Positions 2,056 to 26,281 are shown, numbered from the stretch's first letter. The stretch is DNA of 32,000 nucleotides from Candidatus Altimarinota bacterium (GCA_041659405.1 JBAZYK010000001.1:120001-152000); one strand, 5' to 3'. A program made the numbers and translations. Notes: generated by a model from the sequence alone, not told the origin.

Positions 2056-2709
2056 ATGCAAACGAATAAAATACAATCCGACTCTTCACAAAACCAAAAG
2101 CTTTCCCTTAAAACCCACGCCCTAATGGTGGTGATGGCCTGCTTGCTGTTTTTGGGAAATTCTTTCGATAACGCGCAAGTGCTAAAAGCTCAAGGTGGAG
2201 CCAGCGTCGACAATTCCATTCCTCTGAATATTTTTAGCAGTTATCAAACCGACACCAATTATCAGTGTGAACCTGCCATGAAAGAGTTTGCTTCAAAGCA
2301 ACTTGAGGATTTTCGTAAGTTTACCGAAACAAATTTTCAAAATAAAAGTTCAACGGCTTCATTGCTTGATAACGCCATTCAAAAATATCGTGAGTTGCGT
2401 AAAGGCTTAATGGCGGCTTATTCCCAGTATTATCCAAACCAGGGGGCCTTTATTTTAAGCATTGCGGCACAGCCGAATTCCTGTTTGAAAATTGTTCAAG
2501 ACACGCTTGGTGATGCCCAGATTCTGTTAAAAACTCATGCAATTACAACTTCCGGAGTTAAAAAATCTTCGGGGCTTTTGGAAAAATATCAATCGATCAA
2601 TGGTCAACTTCAAAATCTTAACCAGCAATTTACAAGTATGAAAGCCCTTTTTGACACTTTCTCGCAAAAATTGCCATGTTACGTCAAGAAAGGTGAATGC
2701 CTTAAATAG
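2056..2709 (+). CDS. Secreted/membrane-anchored hypothetical protein, cluster paralog 1 (217 aa)
   Basis: ATG start. N-terminal hydrophobic segment HALMVVMACLLFLGNSF. Helical Q/N/K-rich body. Motifs SCLKIVQD and DNAIQKYRELRKGLMAAYSQYYP. C-terminus ...LPCYVKKGECLK. Confidence 0.7.
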   Translation: MQTNKIQSDSSQNQKLSLKTHALMVVMACLLFLGNSFDNAQVLKAQGGASVDNSIPLNIFSSYQTDTNYQCEPAMKEFASKQLEDFRKFTETNFQNKSSTASLLDNAIQKYRELRKGLMAAYSQYYPNQGAFILSIAAQPNSCLKIVQDTLGDAQILLKTHAITTSGVKKSSGLLEKYQSINGQLQNLNQQFTSMKALFDTFSQKLPCYVKKGECLK

Positions 2710-2742
2710 CCCGGAACAAGCCTGATTGTTAAAATAAAAACT

Positions 2743-3447
2743 ATGAAAAATCTTATTAAAACTCTACCAATTCGCTTAAAGGTAACCATTGGCCTGATGC
2801 TGATGCTGGTGATTTTTCTGTTGTTCAATGTGGTTAAACTAAGGGCTTTGCAATCTTCATATACTTTTTACGACAATCCGGATCTTTCGATTTCTGATGT
2901 CATGACCGCTTATCATACATACATAAATGATACGGTTAATGGTTACACCAGCACCATGCTGGCGGCTCCGCTTACAGATAAACGCGGTAATCCACCGGAA
3001 AACAGTAATAATTGTCCCGACGATCCGCAGAAAAACTTTAGTACTTATTGTTTAGCTGTTCAGCTTATAGGAGATGATGGCAAGAATTTTAAAGGATTCA
3101 TTAACTACAAAACAGCGCTACAGAATCGCAGAAATCAGTTGGCAGATAAAGATCCGCTAAATCCTTATGTCCAGGGGGCGGTTAACATGGTCGATTCTTT
3201 AACGGCAATCCGTTATTTTGCCATAAGACAGACAAATCTTGACAAGGAAATTGATAATGCAAAGAAAGCCATAGATACAACTTTGGCCACTTATGATGAG
3301 TTGCGAATTCTTTATCCGATGCATAAAGAATATGTAAATATTTTTAATGCTTTGGTGAATTATCGTGACAAACTGGTGGAAGTACGCCATGAAACAGACC
3401 AATTCCCATCACGATTTATTGACGTGACCACCTCTAAATGTACGTAA
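2743..3447 (+). CDS. Membrane-anchored/secreted hypothetical protein, cluster paralog 2 (234 aa)
   Basis: N-terminal TM/signal anchor VTIGLMLMLVIFLLFNVV. Motifs YCLAVQLIGD and IDNAKKAIDTTLATYDELRILYP. C-terminus ...TTSKCT. Starts 33 nt after the previous stop. Confidence 0.7.
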   Translation: MKNLIKTLPIRLKVTIGLMLMLVIFLLFNVVKLRALQSSYTFYDNPDLSISDVMTAYHTYINDTVNGYTSTMLAAPLTDKRGNPPENSNNCPDDPQKNFSTYCLAVQLIGDDGKNFKGFINYKTALQNRRNQLADKDPLNPYVQGAVNMVDSLTAIRYFAIRQTNLDKEIDNAKKAIDTTLATYDELRILYPMHKEYVNIFNALVNYRDKLVEVRHETDQFPSRFIDVTTSKCT

Positions 3448-3451
3448 AACT

Positions 3452-5218
3452 ATGAAAAAAATACTCTACATTTTGGGGTTTCTGATGTTCTCGACGGCAT
3501 TGTTGAGCCCGTTTGTAAGTCATAGAGTTTTTGGGGCCGACACTCAAAATCAGGACACTGACTGCAAAAAAGCGGGCAGCTATTCCGAATCGCAAAAGTG
3601 CGTGCCATTTAGCACCGTAAGTATTTTTAATAAACTCAGCATTTTAGATAAAAAATGGGGCGATATTTTTGGAAGCGAAGATCCCACTGTTCTTGGACAA
3701 GGTATGTATAATTTTATTTACAAAGAAGTTGGCGTAAGCCCGGAAGTTAACGCCGCGAAAAATGTTACCGGCAAATATGGCACTACAGAAGCCGAAATGG
3801 CCCAAATCCTTACCGGCAATATTTCATCGATTTTAAAGAAGTATCCTTCATTACCGCAAGAAGTGGCAATGAAAAAAGTGGCGGAAATTCAGCAACAGTT
3901 TCAGGATGAAAAGGATATATTGGCTTTAAAAAACAGTATTGAAGCCACAGTTACTCCAAGTGAAATGTTTACAAATGGAACGACAACAGACTCCGGTTTT
4001 GACCTGGTAGAAGACCTGCGTGACATTGAAACGATTCTATTCTTGAAGTCCGATCCGATTGATGTTGGTGCAAACTGGGTCGGTAATAATGATCCAAATG
4101 CCGGTTATGCTTATAATCCTCCGGGTGGAGGAGGAGCCGGTGGCAATGCAGGCGGTGCCGGTGGTGGCGCAGGCGGTAACGCAGGCGGGGCCGGCGCAGG
4201 TCAGGCAAATAATCAACAAAATGCAAATCAGGTGGCACAGAATAAAGTCCCAAAGACGCCTTCCGCCAATCCGAATATTTGTTTTGGTAATAATAGCCTG
4301 GCTCAAGCCGTGAATTCTTTTGATAAAGCCAATCCCCCTGCTCAAAACCCTGTGTCCGGGAATCAAAAACAGCAAAATGCCGGCGCGGGTTCAAACGAAA
4401 ATTCTGCTTTAACTGCAGGTGGAAGCTTAGATATTTTGCCTATTAATGAGCCACAAACTCCGCCGGTGGTAGCGGCTCCCGCAGGCCAATGGGGTAAAAA
4501 AGATCCGTGTGATGATAAAGTTTTCTGCCTACAGGTGAATTTTGTGATGAAACCGGTTGAACTATTTCAAACACCGGATAACTGCATTGCCTGCCATGTG
4601 GAAAAAATTAATGCAAAATTAAAAGACACAATTGGTCATAGTTTGACTCCGGGTAAAGCTACCGGAAACCTGATGGAACCTGAAATCTGTAAAACGGCGG
4701 CCGCGACCTCGTTTGGAACGTTGGCATTTAATTTTTATGCCGTACCAAAGCCGGTTCAGACTCCAGCCAATGACGATTTAATTTATGGAACAAGCATTGT
4801 TGATGAGTGGAGCAGCTTTGTTGGCACATACAAGCCATTTCCGTTCTATGAAAAAAATCCACCCAAAGCAAGCGATACAAAGGCGGATTTAATTCCTCCT
4901 TCCGAAATTGAGCGTGCCACCAAGTCGGCAATTGCCAATGCAGCTCCAGATGCCACTTTTGAGCAGATCCAAAAGGCGGTAACCGATGAGCTTAACGCCA
5001 ATCAACAACTCAGAAATCAGCAAATTGGCATAGCCGAGCCTTCAACCCAGAGCGATAACGATGTTGGCTTTTATCAGTCAATTCTTCGTCAGTTGGAACA
5101 AATGAATTTTTATTTCGATAATTTTAAAAATATTTTGCACAGTCTTCATGAACCGGTAGACAGTATTCCCGGCCAGCAAGCCTGCACCGAACTAAAAAAT
5201 AAGAAACAGTGTGACTGA
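3452..5218 (+). CDS. Secreted hypothetical protein, cluster paralog 3 (588 aa), with a Gly/Ala- and Gln/Asn-rich low-complexity linker
   Basis: Sec-type signal MKKILYILGFLMFSTALLSPFVSHRVFG/AD. Starts 4 nt after the previous stop. Linker PPGGGGAGGNAGGAGGGAGGNAGGAGAGQANNQQNANQ. Cys-rich core DPCDDKVFCLQVNF..NCIACH..EICK. C-terminus ...QQACTELKNKKQCD. Confidence 0.75.
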   Translation: MKKILYILGFLMFSTALLSPFVSHRVFGADTQNQDTDCKKAGSYSESQKCVPFSTVSIFNKLSILDKKWGDIFGSEDPTVLGQGMYNFIYKEVGVSPEVNAAKNVTGKYGTTEAEMAQILTGNISSILKKYPSLPQEVAMKKVAEIQQQFQDEKDILALKNSIEATVTPSEMFTNGTTTDSGFDLVEDLRDIETILFLKSDPIDVGANWVGNNDPNAGYAYNPPGGGGAGGNAGGAGGGAGGNAGGAGAGQANNQQNANQVAQNKVPKTPSANPNICFGNNSLAQAVNSFDKANPPAQNPVSGNQKQQNAGAGSNENSALTAGGSLDILPINEPQTPPVVAAPAGQWGKKDPCDDKVFCLQVNFVMKPVELFQTPDNCIACHVEKINAKLKDTIGHSLTPGKATGNLMEPEICKTAAATSFGTLAFNFYAVPKPVQTPANDDLIYGTSIVDEWSSFVGTYKPFPFYEKNPPKASDTKADLIPPSEIERATKSAIANAAPDATFEQIQKAVTDELNANQQLRNQQIGIAEPSTQSDNDVGFYQSILRQLEQMNFYFDNFKNILHSLHEPVDSIPGQQACTELKNKKQCD

Positions 5219-5234
5219 GGCGACTGATGAGCTC

Positions 5235-5283
5235 ATTGGCCATAGCTGAGTGAGCGCATGCGAACGAAGCTAATATGGCCAAT
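5235..5283. repeat. GC-rich hairpin element between cluster genes 3 and 4
   Basis: Perfect 10-bp inverted repeat ATTGGCCATA / TATGGCCAAT encloses 29 nt (gctgagtgagcgcatgcgaacgaagctaa), including the palindrome CGCATGCG. No T-tract follows. The sub-motifs AGCTGAGTGAGCG and GCATGCGAACGAAGC resemble the hairpin modules of the dispersed repeat family at 6494, 6694 and 23461. Confidence 0.55.
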
Positions 5284-5351
5284 AGAGCGAAGAAGGAGCC
5301 TCAAAACGGAGAAAAAGGTAAAAAAGAATCCTCAAAAAAACTAAAAAACTT

Positions 5352-6467
5352 ATGAAAAAAACTCAACTTATTATTACCGGCCTGCTGATCTTTACCCTTG
5401 GAATCTCCCAAAATTCCGGGACGAATGGTAGTGCTAATCCAAGCTCAGTAATTTCCGCATTTTCAGAGATGCAAGTTGCCCTGGCCGCTGACCCGAATGC
5501 CGTGGCTCAATTGGGCAATGAACTCATTTGTAAAGGTGGTAGCCGTGACTGGATTGCCTTCCTTTCCGCCGTAATCAGCTATGACGATTTTGTTGAGTAC
5601 TGGCGCGATATTATTGGTATGCCCCCGGCATTTGTTAACAGCCGTTATGCCGCCAACTATTGTCTATTTTTGGATGTTGATAACCTTTTAAACAGGGTCA
5701 AAAAGGCCCGTGAACAGCTGCGTAAAGCCTTTTATGCCTGTGATCCAAACTCAGCCTCATTTAAAAAAACATATTATCGCCTGGAAGCGGAACTTTTCTT
5801 TTTACGAAAATATATTAACGTGAGCAGTGGTACGATAATTCCGGTAAATGAACAAAAAGTTTACGACCAACTAAGCGCATATTATGTTTTAGATAAGAAC
5901 GCATTCACTAAAGATGAAATCAAACTGCTTTTTGATCAATTGAAATCAAAATATGCGGCACGCATGGAAAGTTACATCCAATGTAAAGATCCCGGATGGG
6001 AAGATCTAATGTTAAAAATTAGAGAATTAAGGGATAACGTAAAAGGTGGTTTTGGCATAAAAGAGGCAGCCGAAACCATTAAAAACAGCTTCAATAAAGT
6101 TATCAATACTCCACTAAAAAGATCCGGAAACTTTCTTGGGGGGCTTTTGGATGGCAAAATCAATGGGGTCAGTCCATTACAGGCCTGGGGTGACATTATG
6201 CAGGAAATCAGTAGCAATGCGCCAACCGGTTATTCTTTTGATCGATTACAAACTGCCACAGTTACGGAGCAGTCCAGATATGACAATGCCATTCAAAAAG
6301 CAACCTATTTGGCTCAGTACGAAGCACTTTATAAGAATAGCTCCGCCGAAATTTTCTCCAGTATTATGGACCGTTTGACCAGTCTGGAGGGAATTATTAC
6401 CAAGACCTTCAACTACATGAATCAAACCACCCAGTGCGCAAAGGGCTTGTTGGATAAGGCGTGCTAA
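5352..6467 (+). CDS. Secreted hypothetical protein, cluster paralog 4 (371 aa)
   Basis: Signal peptide MKKTQLIITGLLIFTLGISQ. Motifs YCLFLDVDN and YDNAIQKATYLAQYEALYKN. C-terminus ...TTQCAKGLLDKAC. Confidence 0.75.
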   Translation: MKKTQLIITGLLIFTLGISQNSGTNGSANPSSVISAFSEMQVALAADPNAVAQLGNELICKGGSRDWIAFLSAVISYDDFVEYWRDIIGMPPAFVNSRYAANYCLFLDVDNLLNRVKKAREQLRKAFYACDPNSASFKKTYYRLEAELFFLRKYINVSSGTIIPVNEQKVYDQLSAYYVLDKNAFTKDEIKLLFDQLKSKYAARMESYIQCKDPGWEDLMLKIRELRDNVKGGFGIKEAAETIKNSFNKVINTPLKRSGNFLGGLLDGKINGVSPLQAWGDIMQEISSNAPTGYSFDRLQTATVTEQSRYDNAIQKATYLAQYEALYKNSSAEIFSSIMDRLTSLEGIITKTFNYMNQTTQCAKGLLDKAC

Positions 6468-6533: not shown

Positions 6534-6545
6534 ACATAAAAAAAA

Positions 6546-6570
6546 CCCCTAATGACATAGGAGTTTTTTT
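6546..6570 (+). terminator. Possible weak rho-independent terminator after the secreted-protein cluster
   Basis: AAAAA-CCCCTAatgacaTAGGAG-TTTTTTT. The stem is short and imperfect (one mismatch), but a T7 tract follows. Confidence 0.4.
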
Positions 6571-6693
6571 AAGGCTTTCTAGGGCTTATAGTTAAAGTTC
6601 TTTCTGCAGCTTAGCGCTTTTACAAGCGTTTTCCCAATCGGGCTTCCGAAAAATGATTCGGTTGTCCCTTCCTCCCGGGCCATTTTTGGAGAG

Positions 6694-6824: not shown

Positions 6825-7013
6825 TCAGTGGAGCACATACGAGAGAATTGTTCCTTTGAACTTTTCTCTCCATGTTATGTTTTCACTGGTTTGTGGGGAT
6901 TTTTTTATTCCGGTCAATGTTCCGATAATTTCACTGTTATCAGTTCTGCAATACATGCAGCGTTCACATTTAGTGGAAATAGATATCCCGCAATTGAGAC
7001 AATTAAAGATCAT
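6825..7013 (-). CDS. Possible small zinc-ribbon protein (62 aa)
   Basis: N-terminus MIFNCLNCGISISTKCERCMYC has CxxC-x8-CxxCxxC spacing typical of zinc ribbons. Lies 58 nt downstream of the HTH gene on the same strand. No clear RBS, and the C-terminal half looks non-descript. Confidence 0.3.
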   Translation of the reverse strand: MIFNCLNCGISISTKCERCMYCRTDNSEIIGTLTGIKKSPQTSENITWREKFKGTILSYVLH

Positions 7014-7071
7014 TCTTTAAGTTGGTTTGATTTTGTATGTAAATGAAGATGTTTTTCAATTTGTAGTACCC

Positions 7072-7539
7072 CTATTCAAGGACGTAGTGGTCCAGTTCGA
7101 ACATTTTATCTGCTGGATCAAGCCGTTTTTTGGGTACAACATTACCGTCAGGATTCTTTGGGGAATCTGACTTTTTTGATTTGCCGGATGGGAATTCAGG
7201 TAACATCAGCTCTTTTGGATTTAAGGCCGGTGCTGCTTTTATTACTACATTTTCGTGTTGTTCGATATTTGGACTTTTTAAAGCATCTTCTTTCGTCTCT
7301 ACTACGAGGTCGAGTGAAACTTGAGAAGTTTCTTTGGGAGTCAAACTCTTTCTGGACTTTGCTACAGACGTCTCCGCCTGCTCATCCAGAAAGCGACTAA
7401 CATCGCTTTCACGGATCCGATATACCCTTCCCAACTTACTGGCCTTCAATTTACCTTGTTTTATAAATTTTAAGACAGTGAAGGGGTGCATTTGCAACTT
7501 CTGGGCAACCTGATCTGGAGTAAGAATATTTTCTTCCAT
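7072..7539 (-). CDS. Excisionase/MerR-type helix-turn-helix DNA-binding protein with a disordered C-terminal tail (155 aa)
   Basis: N-terminus LTPDQVAQKLQMHPFTVLKFIKQGKLKASKLGRVYRIRESDVSRFL matches the excisionase-family HTH pattern (LT..eaA..L.v....v......G.l.a.k.Gr.wri....l..fl). Confidence 0.7.
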   Translation of the reverse strand: MEENILTPDQVAQKLQMHPFTVLKFIKQGKLKASKLGRVYRIRESDVSRFLDEQAETSVAKSRKSLTPKETSQVSLDLVVETKEDALKSPNIEQHENVVIKAAPALNPKELMLPEFPSGKSKKSDSPKNPDGNVVPKKRLDPADKMFELDHYVLE

Positions 7540-7740
7540 CTAGCTCAACTTTAATTAGTAATAAGTCATTGGGGCTTGATTTAAAAGTTTTTAAACCTTT
7601 TAACCAATCCAAGACAATCTAACTAAAGTTTAACATTATTTTAATGAACAGACAATGATATAAACCTTTGTTTATTTATCTGGGATACTTATATCACAAA
7701 CAACATAACTATTCAAGATTTTTAGCAAGTTAATTTAAGT

Positions 7741-20058: not shown

Positions 20059-20127
20059 GATCACGCGGGTGGGGCTCTAAATCTCTGCACTTTCCGATCA
20101 CGCGGGGAAAGCTCTAAACCGTTGCAC
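20059..20127. repeat. Tandem imperfect duplication of the 3' coding end of the HNH gene
   Basis: GATCACGCGGGTGGGGCTCTAAATCTCTGCAC (20059-20090) versus GATCACGCGGGGAAAGCTCTAAACCGTTGCAC (20096-20127); 25 of 32 positions identical. On the minus strand they read VQRFRAPPA* and VQRFRAFPA*. Confidence 0.8.
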
Positions 20128-21132
20128 AACCTGATCAATCACATACTTTGCTTTGCCGATTTCGCTGGTTACATCAGCCGATTTTCGGACTTTCCACAAC
20201 CTTGGCGACAAATCTTCATTTTCAATTAGTCCCAAATGTGCAATGCGTTCGTGTGCCTTGCATAAGCCATAAAGCCGATCAGAGTCGTGAACATTTTCGA
20301 GCGCAAATCTTTGCGTGTGGTGTTTGATGTTGAGTTTTTTATTGCAGCCCGGAAACGCGCACTGGCCGTTGGTTCTTGAAGTAACATATCGGTCGATTTT
20401 GGCCGGAATATGCCGCGAATCGGTCTTCACCGGATCCGGTTTTTGCTCTTCAAGATGTTCTTCACGCATCTGCAAAAGTTGTTTCATCAGATCATTCCAG
20501 TCACCATTTTCGCCTTTAAGTTTTTCCAGTTGAGCCAGAATTTCCGGATCAAGCTGCATGGCCACAAGCTTTTTGACGGATTGAAAAGTTTCTGGCGTAT
20601 TCGGGATTTTCGGGACGTCCCAAGAAATATCCTCAGATTTTGGCTCAAATAAGCCAATTTGATTTTGGCCGGTTTCATTGTTTGTATGATGCAAGTTTTT
20701 GTTTTGCAAATTTTCAGTATCGAAATTTTCAACTTTCTTAAATTCTTGAACGTAGGTTCTTAAGGTGTGATTGCTCATTTCCATCGCTTTTTCAGCCCAG
20801 AAATTCGCATCTTCTTGAGTCGCGATTTTCACTAATGGCCGAACCGCATTAATTCCTTTTGTTTCCACAACTTTCAGCAAAGCCGGTTTGTCTTCAATTT
20901 TCTTCAAAACCCACAAAGCATCATCGACCGAAGGATGGCTCATCCCCGCCAACTTTGCCGCATATTCGTAAATGTCCCTGAAACCTTTTTTCTTCCAAAT
21001 TTCGTACTTTTCGATTTCTGGAAGCAGTAAAGAGCACTTCCAAATCCATTCCTTGGCGTTCCTGCCAAACGTTACAAATTTTTCATGCAGAATTTTTTCC
21101 TGAACCGTTATTTTTTGAAGATTTGTTTGCAT
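20098..21132 (-). CDS. HNH endonuclease domain protein (344 aa)
   Basis: C-terminal CAFPGCNKKLNIKHHTQRFALENVHDSDRLYGLCKAHERIAHLG fits an HNH/His-Me finger (C..C...H H ... C..H..H). The N-terminal helical region resembles the DUF222-type HNH proteins often found as multi-copy genes. Confidence 0.8.
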   Translation of the reverse strand: MQTNLQKITVQEKILHEKFVTFGRNAKEWIWKCSLLLPEIEKYEIWKKKGFRDIYEYAAKLAGMSHPSVDDALWVLKKIEDKPALLKVVETKGINAVRPLVKIATQEDANFWAEKAMEMSNHTLRTYVQEFKKVENFDTENLQNKNLHHTNNETGQNQIGLFEPKSEDISWDVPKIPNTPETFQSVKKLVAMQLDPEILAQLEKLKGENGDWNDLMKQLLQMREEHLEEQKPDPVKTDSRHIPAKIDRYVTSRTNGQCAFPGCNKKLNIKHHTQRFALENVHDSDRLYGLCKAHERIAHLGLIENEDLSPRLWKVRKSADVTSEIGKAKYVIDQVVQRFRAFPA

Positions 21133-24106: not shown

Positions 24107-26281
24107 CTACCTTGCTGAAGTTTTAAAGCTTCCACTGTTCATGACAATTTTTCGAGCAGTTTGTCTGGCGGCTATTTTTTCACGTTTTCTGTAGGTTTGT
24201 GAACCGTAAACTACTGCAGGATGCAGAATATGGTCTATGACAGGCGCTTCACGCTTGGCACGATATTTTTTGTATGAGCTTTCGGTGTTATCACTGACAC
24301 TGTAAAGCAAAAAATCCTTTAAGTTTTGAACAACCGTTATTTCAAAATTCATCCTGGTTTGATCTTTACCAACAAAGGCATATCCGGACATATTTTCCCT
24401 ATTGTGTGCGGGAAAAGCGCTGTTTTCATTTTGCTCTTTTTCTTCGGTGAAGCGTGTCGTTTTTTTACCATCAGTCATGAAATTTCTGGCAAAATATTTA
24501 CGCAGATCTTCATAATCTGCCGGATTAACCGGAATAATGCTGGTGCGCACCAAGTCGGTAAAATCCGGATGTTTTTTTCCTTCACGAAGAAAATTGGATA
24601 TTATGGAAAAAAGATCTTTATCGTGAAATAATTGTTCATTTTCGTTGGCATAAAAATAAACAGGAATTGTTTTTGGCCCCTCATGGGTGGGAATAGTTAC
24701 AGTAGTTTGATAAAATTTCTTGTTCTCGATTTCGTGCAGTACCGAGCCATCTTCACCTGTATTTTTCTCGGCTGGTCGATCCTGAAGAGATTTTTCATCA
24801 GTTATAAAATCATACCTGTTACCGTTGCTTCCGTTTGGATTTTCTTTAACTCTAAAAGAGATTGTTTTAATTTTCTCTTCGGTCAGCTCGCCCATCTCAA
24901 GAAATTCAATAAAGAAATCTCTAATGGCATCACGATCCTTGATTCGATTTTGAACATCTCTAATGTTGGCACATTTTCTAACGATTATCATGTATTTTAA
25001 AACGGTTCCGGCTTCATGACTTAACACTTTTAAAACATTGGATCTTCCATGCTTTTTTATTAATGCTTCCTGCCGCTCTTTTGGAAGTTTCCGCAATAAA
25101 TAAACAGGTCTAATGCTCCACTGTAACAGCTCTTCAACATTGTCAGAAGCCATTATTTCTTTCGTGAAATCATATTCTTTTCTGACCGGATCATTTTGAT
25201 CAGTGTCGGCAAAAAACTCATTAAAGCTCCATTCAATAAAATCCTTGGCCTGTCCAAGATCTTTAGCCAGTGTTTCCCGGTCATTATTACTGGTGTAATG
25301 TCTAAGCAATGGGGCCCGATGTTCCGGTTTTGCCAAAAGAAATTTCCAGACAGCTTTTTTAATGGTTGGTGCCGAAATTACTTTTTCCATTCCACGTTGA
25401 TTGGTACTTGTAAATTCATCAAAATCGGGCTCATCACTCATTTCCGCGGCACGGGCATCAGCAATTACCGGCTCAAAAAATCTGGTCCAGACTTTGTCAA
25501 AATCCGCTTCGTTTTCTCGAGGGAATCCATTGGAATCCTGTGGTAAATTTGCATCTACCGCTCCACGAATACTATCCGTGGATGTTTCGGTCTGATCTTC
25601 GGTTCCAAGAAACCACCGATAAAGCTCATTATGAATAACATGTTCATCTAAAATTTCATTTTCATTCAAAAATTCAATAAATTTCTTAATGTTTCCCGTA
25701 TTCGCTATTACTTCAGTGTTTTTCCGTGATATCAGTCGTGGGAAAATATACTCTTTCATAAATTCTTCCGCGTCTGCTCCAAATTCTTCACGAAAAGTTT
25801 TTTTGGAAATATGCGCGGCAGTTTCATTGATTTTTTCAACCAGGAGTGCCTTAAGTTCACTATCAAACAAGTCAATAACTTTCAAATCGGGATATTGCTT
25901 CTTCAATTTTTGTAAATTTTGATAGAGTGAAGCTATACTTTTTTCATATCTATTTAAAAATTTGAGAAGTTTTGCTTTTGCTTCCTGAAACTGCGGATCT
26001 TCCGGCGTTAATGGGTTTTCAATATTTTCAGTCGGCGCTTGAATGTTCTTGATAAAATCGGCAGCCAAAGAAGTTGCAAATCCATTGCGGAAAATTGCCA
26101 TAAATTCGTGCTCGAGCATGCCATATTTCGTAAACGCACGTGTGACCAGGTCTCTGATTAAGCCCTTGATTGGTGCGTCAGGTTTTGAATTCAATTCTTC
26201 AGCATAATCTGAAAGATCAGCGAATTCCGGGCTTTGCACAATGCGGTGAGGCAAATCTATTTGTTCCGCTAAATTAATCAT
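24107..26281 (-). CDS. Large hypothetical cytoplasmic protein (724 aa)
   Basis: Long ORF with no signal peptide or TM segment. A strong promoter lies upstream. I recognise no domain with confidence; see findings for a weak motif-order resemblance in the C-terminal ~120 aa. Confidence 0.75.
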   Translation of the reverse strand: MINLAEQIDLPHRIVQSPEFADLSDYAEELNSKPDAPIKGLIRDLVTRAFTKYGMLEHEFMAIFRNGFATSLAADFIKNIQAPTENIENPLTPEDPQFQEAKAKLLKFLNRYEKSIASLYQNLQKLKKQYPDLKVIDLFDSELKALLVEKINETAAHISKKTFREEFGADAEEFMKEYIFPRLISRKNTEVIANTGNIKKFIEFLNENEILDEHVIHNELYRWFLGTEDQTETSTDSIRGAVDANLPQDSNGFPRENEADFDKVWTRFFEPVIADARAAEMSDEPDFDEFTSTNQRGMEKVISAPTIKKAVWKFLLAKPEHRAPLLRHYTSNNDRETLAKDLGQAKDFIEWSFNEFFADTDQNDPVRKEYDFTKEIMASDNVEELLQWSIRPVYLLRKLPKERQEALIKKHGRSNVLKVLSHEAGTVLKYMIIVRKCANIRDVQNRIKDRDAIRDFFIEFLEMGELTEEKIKTISFRVKENPNGSNGNRYDFITDEKSLQDRPAEKNTGEDGSVLHEIENKKFYQTTVTIPTHEGPKTIPVYFYANENEQLFHDKDLFSIISNFLREGKKHPDFTDLVRTSIIPVNPADYEDLRKYFARNFMTDGKKTTRFTEEKEQNENSAFPAHNRENMSGYAFVGKDQTRMNFEITVVQNLKDFLLYSVSDNTESSYKKYRAKREAPVIDHILHPAVVYGSQTYRKREKIAARQTARKIVMNSGSFKTSAR

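Follow-up and report, generated by a model that had tools for sequence, protein, structure and literature searches.

A syntenic block of four predicted exported proteins with co-varying terminal cysteines behind a giant surface-protein gene in Peregrinibacteria

We analyzed a stretch of 32,000 nucleotides (nt) from a Candidatus Altimarinota bacterium (GCA_041659405.1, JBAZYK010000001.1:120001-152000; hereafter the window, with positions counted from its first letter), with a focus on four consecutive genes on the same strand, referred to here as A, B, C and D, which follow directly on a gene for a giant surface protein. An earlier note, made from the sequence alone, had described the products as four paralogous secreted Cys-motif proteins forming a candidate cell-envelope system. 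The coordinates and lengths of the 4 open reading frames (ORFs; 217, 234, 588 and 371 amino acids (aa)) were reproduced, as were the gaps of 33 nt between A and B and 4 nt between B and C; the spacer between C and D measures 133 nt. These genes and the relevant parts of the upstream gene are as follows.

1-1959, + strand: C-terminal part (~635-650 residues) of the giant protein; frame open from nt 1; Pfam TSP3_bac and SLH matches
1684-1959, + strand: conserved C-terminal tail of the giant, ~90 residues, from an alignment of 16 giant C-termini; no Pfam model covers the tail
1756-1773, + strand: C-x2-C-P-C in the giant tail; Cys569/572/574 invariant among the 16 C-termini
2056-2709, + strand: gene A, 217 aa, predicted exported; from the ORF, a 19-sequence family alignment and hydropathy
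2743-3447, + strand: gene B, 234 aa, predicted exported or N-terminally anchored; from the ORF and a family alignment
3452-5218, + strand: gene C, 588 aa; from the ORF, family alignments, an AlphaFold2 (AF2) model and 52 homologs
5352-6467, + strand: gene D, 371 aa, predicted all-alpha and exported; from the ORF, family alignments and an AF2 model

Hydropathy fits the signal peptide or N-terminal anchor that the earlier note assigned to all four proteins. Each has one hydrophobic segment, located at its N-terminus, and elsewhere the maximal 19-residue Kyte-Doolittle hydropathy is 0.74-0.95. The N-termini of the A-D families resemble ordinary n-h-c signal peptides with A-x-A-like cleavage sites (e.g. 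TQA↓Q and AHA↓Q), a pattern that fits Sec export of predicted A-D, while the long h-region of B could perhaps serve as an uncleaved anchor. No conserved lipobox Cys was found in the A-D families (the VMAC29 of A is lipobox-like, but C29 is missing from the orthologs), nor was the C-terminal signature of sortase substrates (an LPXTG-type motif, then a hydrophobic stretch and basic residues); the A-D tails are short, polar and Cys-containing. By Pfam, SLH domains occur in the giant and are absent from A-D.

The TSP3 and SLH domains claimed for the upstream protein are present, but the product of 1-1959 is not a whole protein: the ORF called at 52-1959 is the end of a gene of 5,316 aa that is complete on ENA ERZ27249449 k141_184062 (167 kb), and whose product has Pfam matches to SLH, TSP3, FG-GAP, Invasin_D3 and Glyco_hydro2_C5. 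Across loci the giant ORF spans 4.8-5.7k aa, and it lies immediately 5' of A in 21/21 loci that reach so far. Its tail follows the consensus DPR.DL.EG.Y.I...C..CPC.SAIDH.AD..GD..F..IS...IFSKSN, and the CxxCPC motif within it is also kept in the deep-branching loci L027, L030 and L031. A homolog search with this tail returned short TSP3 proteins and contig-edge fragments only, with no full-length giants.

Homologs of D numbered 28 in a word-indexed search, and an exhaustive profile search expanded the family to 275 representatives of 50%-identity clusters (246 at E<=1e-10), all of 340-460 aa. The homologs of C (n=52) were unannotated, and for neither C nor D did any homolog carry a name beyond "hypothetical" or a Pfam domain. 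Those hosts that have names are Candidatus Peregrinibacteria/Peribacteria, with some labelled Gracilibacteria or Patescibacteria. The gene order giant, A, B, C, D is kept in all related loci of sufficient length and persists in distant loci, in which D identity drops to ~25%; at locus L004 the five-gene block is intact although the downstream neighbors differ. Each of the complete chromosomes in the genome scan (n=3) has one locus. In most loci little or no sequence separates neighboring A-D genes (-26 to +9 nt), and the overlaps, that of C and D among them, suggest coupled expression. Taken together, these findings show that A-D are real, lineage-wide, single-block genes of Peregrinibacteria/Peribacteria, and the view that they are not four unrelated ORFans is upheld by the synteny of the exported set with the giant gene in all loci.

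One locus is disrupted: in L026 (Candidatus Gracilibacteria STL-PAT5, 7000-10900) the B, C and D orthologs are split in several pieces under codes 11 and 25 alike. Genetic code 25 is not supported as the cause, since in-frame TAA/TAG (also TGA) stops persist, and this cassette is probably degraded or misassembled.

We compared the conservation of individual residues with the three short motifs that had been taken to unite A-D, namely (a) an internal Cys with a hydrophobic flank, (b) a helical segment with a DNA(I/K)(Q/K)K core and (c) a Cys close to the C-terminus. The peptides quoted for them are present in the window proteins. In motif (a) the Cys itself is 100% conserved (A C143, B C103, C C359 and D C104), but its flanks are mostly 5-71% conserved, with D108 (100%) and D110 (84%) of protein D as exceptions. 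Within families, conservation of the motif (b) core is 5-50%, its alanine (24-85%) excepted, and the version in C reaches 5-24%; we rejected it as a shared element, the look-alike of A and D being specific to the window genome. Nor is the order of motifs common to all four, as A runs from (b) (103-127) to (a) (142-149) to (c). Motif (c) was confirmed: each of the four proteins has a Cys among its final 1-3 residues, and orthologs conserve this Cys at 93-100%. For the most part, the elements that are conserved or that align are not the motifs offered as evidence of paralogy.

What the families do hold in common with their window members are fixed cysteine frameworks. In A the invariant Cys are C71 and C143 in the core together with C208 (nt 2677-2679) and C215 (nt 2698-2700); in B they are C91, C103 and a lone terminal C233 (nt 3439-3441). 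In protein C a helical domain towards the N-terminus (~83-167) is followed by a low-complexity linker rich in Gly, Asn and Gln (~205-340), and a long helix occupies the C-terminal part; its invariant Cys are C277, C353, C359, C378, C381 and C413, which make up a Cys-rich middle, and the terminal C578 (nt 5183-5185) and C587 (nt 5210-5212). The core of D bears C60, C104, C130 and C211, and its tail C362 (nt 6435-6437) and C371 (nt 6462-6464).

We surveyed the terminal Cys of A, C and D in 50 loci, including 19 metagenome loci of a divergent clade. Five states were seen, with 6, 4, 2, 2 or 0 of the six Cys present, so that the total was even each time. They are listed below in the notation (A208, A215; C578, C587; D362, D371), where 1 means that the Cys is present.

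S6: all six Cys; 20 loci, window included
S4: (0,1; 1,0; 1,1); L042 and L043, and also six partial loci whose C and D agree with this state
S2a: (0,1; 0,0; 0,1); L030, L032 and L034-36
S2b: (0,0; 1,0; 1,0); L050
S0: none of the six; L027 and L031

Within S4, S2a and S2b, individual proteins turn odd two at a time, never one or three, and proteins with a single terminal Cys have odd Cys totals (3 in A, 7 in C and 5 in D). The broad D family behaves similarly: members with two terminal Cys have a total of 6 in 66/75 cases, those with one have 5 in 20/24, and those with none have 4 in 5/6. All five states correspond to the removal of whole pairs if A208 is paired with C587, A215 with D371 and C578 with D362, whereas a model of intramolecular loops leaves orphan Cys in S4, S2a and S2b. 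The pairwise loss of Cys across proteins argues for intermolecular disulfides. On a rough neighbor-joining tree of D, the states call for at least 4-5 independent events, one of them at locus L029, where the second terminal Cys is repositioned in both A and C. The co-variation across A, C and D fits that part of the earlier proposal which foresaw a disulfide-stabilized multi-subunit structure; that structure may be a fiber, adhesin or scaffold, but neither structure prediction of C and D nor fold searches yielded a functional lead.

Protein B follows a different rule. Exactly one Cys is found in its last 8 residues across all Cys-state classes, S0 included. The sole B seen without a terminal Cys is the ortholog at L039 (tail DATSSQVP), a locus at a contig edge, and this absence may be an assembly error. 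The CxxCPC of the giant is also kept in all classes, again including S0. That the terminal Cys of B is constant while the A, C and D tails vary indicates that its partner lies outside those tails; a disulfide to the giant or to a second B could serve, either being compatible with parity.

We measured the relatedness of the four families by profile-profile comparison (hhalign), with reversed and block-shuffled profiles as controls. Direct pairwise BLASTP among A-D gave nothing significant (best E~0.07). The A-B comparison was the strongest (probability 92%, E 7e-7, score 50.1, compared to 20.9+-2.5 with a maximum of 25.3 for block-shuffled and ~17 for reversed controls); the similarity spans nearly the full length of both, and in HMMER the top 12 non-self matches of the A profile were all B proteins. 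D and C have a C-terminal module of ~80 residues in common, in which both terminal Cys are in register (probability 62%, E 7e-5, score 44.5 vs a control maximum of 31.9). D and A were connected through an N-terminal module (probability 64%, score 38.7 vs a control maximum of 28.6), a match that is parameter-sensitive and falls to noise under other hhalign settings. The D-B comparison was marginal (31.7 vs a control maximum of 30.1), while C-A (26.5, with 27.3 for the reversed control) and C-B (25.9) were at noise level. These profile comparisons show relatedness of a modular kind, which is best described as a putative chain running B-A-D-C and not as four full-length paralogs. The earlier claim of paralogy therefore stands for A with B, for the C-terminal module of D and C and for the N-terminal module of D and A, but not for C with A or B, and the D-B pair is borderline.

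The earlier note had not recognized the family, and our searches agree with it. A, B, C and D had no match near the cut-off in Pfam or NCBIfam, and individual scans of 19-41 orthologs per family against both revealed no recurrent family; a FliD_C match to B appeared in 2/20 members and in 0/5 re-scanned B members, and was dropped. Searches of PDB sequences with profiles of the families (n=5, one of them built from 105 D sequences) gave amphipathic-helix or designed-bundle noise only. The AF2 monomer model of D is all-alpha, with a predicted local distance difference test score (pLDDT) of 62, a predicted template modelling score (pTM) of 0.49 and a confident core at 100-215. That of C is likewise all-alpha (pLDDT 57, pTM 0.32); it shows a helical domain, predicted with confidence, near the N-terminus and a long helix at the C-terminus, and leaves the Cys-rich middle unresolved. 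Foldseek searches of both models against PDB and BFVD reached best E values of 1.7, 1.8 and 0.08, with low template modelling (TM) scores throughout. A literature search found no description of the A-D cassette. Taken together, these results show that A-D belong to no described family or fold.

The most conserved site of the whole cassette lies in the middle of C, at the following positions.

4577-4606, + strand: D-N-C-I-A-C-H-V-E-K site, C residues 376-385; identical in 38-41 of 41 C sequences per position
4637-4639, + strand: H396 of C, a downstream His conserved along with the CxxCH site

C378 and C381 are present in 41/41 C sequences and H382 in 38/41; the consensus is DNCIACHxEK, the 8th position being V in the window. 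The CIACH string matches the CxxCH haem-attachment motif of c-type cytochromes as well as a CxxC redox or metal site. In the model its CxxC starts a predicted helix (379-397), but the region around it is modelled at pLDDT <50 without any beta-strand, and no family match was obtained. Searches of Pfam, NCBIfam, PDB (by profile) and Foldseek detected no cytochrome-c, thioredoxin or Dsb family or fold for C. Peribacteria have been described as fermentative, without a respiratory chain, and haem is not mentioned (PMC4736985). We set aside the haem-c reading, which is unsupported by the family searches and by literature describing these organisms without a respiratory chain. At the deep-branching locus L028 the C ortholog (8085-10010) has 16 Cys and a faint precomputed Pfam match to Cu-binding_MopE, and the B ortholog of the same locus is larger than usual, at 360 aa, with about 9 Cys in its mature part.

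The claim that the cluster has its own extended -10 promoter was supported. The signals that accompany the genes, and the small transcription unit that converges on them, are listed here.

2003-2011, + strand: extended -10 promoter element TGGTATAAT, identified by sequence, 44 nt before the ATG of A
5216-5303, + strand: RNA hairpin of ~88 nt beginning at the stop codon of C; folding free energy (dG) -46.7 kcal/mol, z = -6.8, 0/200 shuffles equally stable
6539-6571, no strand assigned: A8-hairpin-U7 that may terminate transcription in both directions where the A-D and HTH_17/zinc-ribbon units converge; weak evidence
6825-7013, - strand: zinc-ribbon-like ORF, 62 aa (MIFNCLNCGISISTKCERCMYC...), with CxxC...CxYC, no Pfam family, unannotated
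7072-7539, - strand: HTH_17 protein, 155 aa, by Pfam

The motif TGnTAnAAT recurs within 70 nt 5' of A in 14/22 distinct loci, compared to ~0.16 expected (0.0074 per 70 nt). In 9 loci (named: L005, L006, L008-L011, L014 and L016) it ends 8-10 nt from the ATG, a spacing that suggests leaderless or near-leaderless A mRNAs in those genomes. The element is missing from the deepest-branching loci, whose giant gene directly adjoins A or overlaps it. No -35 element accompanies that of the window, which is why a simple promoter scan missed TGGTATAAT. On the strength of this recurrence, the A-D genes have a predicted promoter of their own in the clade of the window.

The 133-nt spacer between C and D, with its hairpin, is a feature of the window genome only; in other loci C and D overlap or are separated by <=8 nt. 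The window has one copy of the hairpin, which might represent an insertion or an RNA structure internal to the operon. Rfam gave no matches over the whole window. The putative terminator hairpin at 6539-6571 appears in the minimum-free-energy fold, but the region overall is not unusually stable (z = -1.2). The zinc-ribbon-like ORF lies downstream of D in 24/29 loci, in which gene callers frequently miss or shorten it; the pair that it makes with the HTH_17 gene recurs beside the cassette and is absent in L004, and whether these two are members of the system is uncertain. Elsewhere the window contains ordinary chromosomal genes (UvrA, a GlpO-like oxidase, HAD, PrsW, a RecF/RecN-like ATPase, ThrRS, Wzy_C and ATP synthase a/b/delta). 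A PhdYeFM antitoxin/ParE toxin pair (11376-11984, + strand) sits between UvrA and two unknown genes and is missing there in several related loci. ORFs with no Pfam family lie at 12131-14538 (- strand, 681+119 aa), 20098-21132 (- strand, 344 aa) and 24107-26281 (- strand, 724 aa).

As an explanation of these observations, we tentatively propose that A-D form an extracellular hetero-oligomer in which A, C and D are joined by their tails and B is attached elsewhere, and which assists the giant SLH-anchored protein as an accessory module; we regard this proposal as slightly more apt to be wrong than right. A-D would be transcribed as a separate unit that lies just 3' of the gene encoding the giant SLH-anchored, Ca-binding surface protein. 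Outside the cell, as the co-variation suggests, the C-terminal tails of A, C and D would meet, and up to three intermolecular disulfides (A208-C587, A215-D371 and C578-D362) would convert them into a covalently latched A-C-D hetero-oligomer. The near-invariant, unpaired terminal Cys of B would bond elsewhere, either with a second B or with the C-x2-C-P-C tail of the giant. Judging from gene linkage only, the complex might then serve the giant as an accessory, anchoring or tip module of a surface apparatus that holds on to other cells. Such an arrangement fits the Cys-rich extracellular proteome and the symbiotic lifestyle reported for Peribacteria (PMC4736985).

Several points weigh against this proposal. 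The D tree behind the event count is a rough neighbor-joining tree, and the pairing scheme was drawn from the same data that it explains. Independent checks of the scheme come down to the joint loss of A208 and C587 and the joint relocation at L029, with support of roughly p~0.01-0.07, so that the scheme is suggested and not proved. The existence of L027 and L031, without any of the six terminal Cys, implies that the disulfides are dispensable for A-D function. The evidence for a link between the Cys of B and the giant tail consists of parity and invariance, and the structural basis is a pair of low-confidence monomer models, of C and D (pLDDT 57 and 62). Lastly, the HTH_17, UvrA and PrsW neighborhood is syntenic too, so the adjacency of the giant and A-D may partly reflect general genome conservation. 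A bolder version of the proposal, in which A, C and D form a three-way disulfide junction, B bridges it to the CxxCPC of the giant, the whole stands at the base or tip of an attachment organelle and the CxxCH of C acts as a redox or metal latch, we consider improbable; if true, this bridged junction would be an undescribed type of extracellular assembly, possibly also one for host-lipid or nutrient acquisition.

We also weighed explanations that dispense with a tail-joined complex. A-D might be independent secreted or envelope proteins, their tails self-stapled or bearing free thiols, whose adjacency reflects vertical conservation and which form neither a complex nor a link to the giant. The C-x6-8-C that ends A, C and D in most genomes is what self-stapled tails would look like, and the flanking synteny as well as the lineages without any terminal Cys sit comfortably with independence. 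This account is unlikely, however, in view of S4, S2a and S2b, in which single terminal Cys and odd totals arise in two proteins together and never in one or three; the five-gene block also remains intact at L004 despite another downstream context, and the overlaps of genes suggest that their expression is coupled. Alternatively, A-D could be extracytoplasmic maturation factors that provide the giant with oxidative folding, metal insertion or chaperoning, with DNCIACHxEK of C as a redox CxxC or a metal/haem site. That the CxxCH decapeptide and H396 are the top-conserved element of all four proteins would find a ready explanation here, and AF2 begins helix 379-397 at the motif, as in CxxC oxidoreductases; one C ortholog has the faint Cu-binding_MopE match, the tail of the giant offers CxxCPC, and a single Dsb-type protein is reported in Peribacteria (PMC4736985). 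We nonetheless give this account a small chance: the searches with C brought up neither a family nor a fold of the thioredoxin, Dsb or cytochrome-c kind, the model of C is of low confidence around CxxCH, the description of Peribacteria reports no respiratory chain and leaves haem unmentioned (PMC4736985), and the co-variation of terminal Cys across proteins is left unexplained.

By analogy with known toxins, A-D might instead act as secreted effectors at the point of host contact, i.e. as a multi-component alpha-helical module that is membrane-active or lipid-binding and is delivered beside the adhesin. An operon of remotely related, secreted all-alpha proteins is in keeping with this idea, the broad D profile weakly matches 2lse (a four-helix bundle) and apolipoprotein A-I (E 0.006-0.075), and fatty-acid synthesis is lacking in Peribacteria (PMC4736985). 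In none of the mature proteins, however, did a 19-residue Kyte-Doolittle scan outside the signal peptide find a hydrophobic head, beta-tongue or other membrane-insertion segment. A ClyA-like elongated bundle was also not found: the model of D matched AhlB/AhlC at noise level (E 5.3-7.4, TM ~0.11) and that of C not at all, both models being of low-to-moderate confidence. Apolipoprotein matches are typical of amphipathic-helix composition, and the fixed Cys frameworks are unlike those families. We hold a role as effectors to be very unlikely.

Comparison with known systems sets the tail-joined hetero-oligomer apart from each of them. Ena, the appendages of Bacillus endospores, are made of beta-jellyroll DUF3992 subunits that form homopolymers. 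They resemble A-D in being adjacent small exported subunits with proposed intermolecular disulfides through terminal Cys segments; in contrast, A-D are alpha-helical without a Pfam or PDB match, and the putative A-C-D network is a closed junction of three partners and not a polymer. The tripartite alpha-pore-forming toxins (AhlABC, Hbl and Nhe, of the ClyA family) likewise come from an operon of secreted all-alpha distant paralogs that form a hetero-oligomer, as proposed for A-D, but A-D have neither the hydrophobic head nor significant similarity in fold or sequence, and instead possess conserved Cys frameworks and an obligate linkage to the giant SLH protein. The D-region of type IV pilins offers another parallel, since there too a small exported protein begins with a hydrophobic segment and ends in C-x(n)-C. 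The A-D alignments nevertheless contain no class III (prepilin) signal, with no G|F(T/S)LxE, and unlike the pilin loop the terminal Cys of A, C and D pair between proteins, as the co-variation argues. Similarly, the near-invariant C-I-A-C-H at a predicted helix start of C is reminiscent of haem-c CxxCH and CxxC oxidoreductase sites, but no cytochrome-c or thioredoxin family or fold was detected for this protein. The A-D families have no earlier description, and no known kind of system corresponds to them.

The closest setting is that of giant surface proteins in the candidate phyla radiation (CPR) and in epibiotic or predatory bacteria. Much of bacterial diversity belongs to the CPR, whose members are thought to live attached to other cells. 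Peregrinibacteria are reported to be enriched in proteins of >5,000 aa, and Vampirococcus lugosii has giant membrane proteins (PMC11573180, PMC8080830, PMC4736985); in Peribacteria, large Cys-rich extracellular proteins have been proposed to function in attachment, alongside one disulfide-formation protein (PMC4736985). A preprint on giant genes of Omnitrophota makes no mention of Peregrinibacteria or Gracilibacteria and treats CPR as background only. The likeness resides in the upstream gene, the product of which is giant, multi-domain and presumably adhesive, whereas no conserved set of small exported partner genes is described in the CPR and epibiont papers (PMC11573180, PMC8080830, PMC4736985). 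In a lineage unusually rich in giant uncharacterized surface proteins, the A-D cassette looks like a single-copy partner set for one of them. The co-variation of its Cys makes a testable prediction, of three named inter-subunit disulfides and one orphan Cys in B, and its confirmation would offer an initial molecular entry point to the envelope or the attachment apparatus of Peregrinibacteria.

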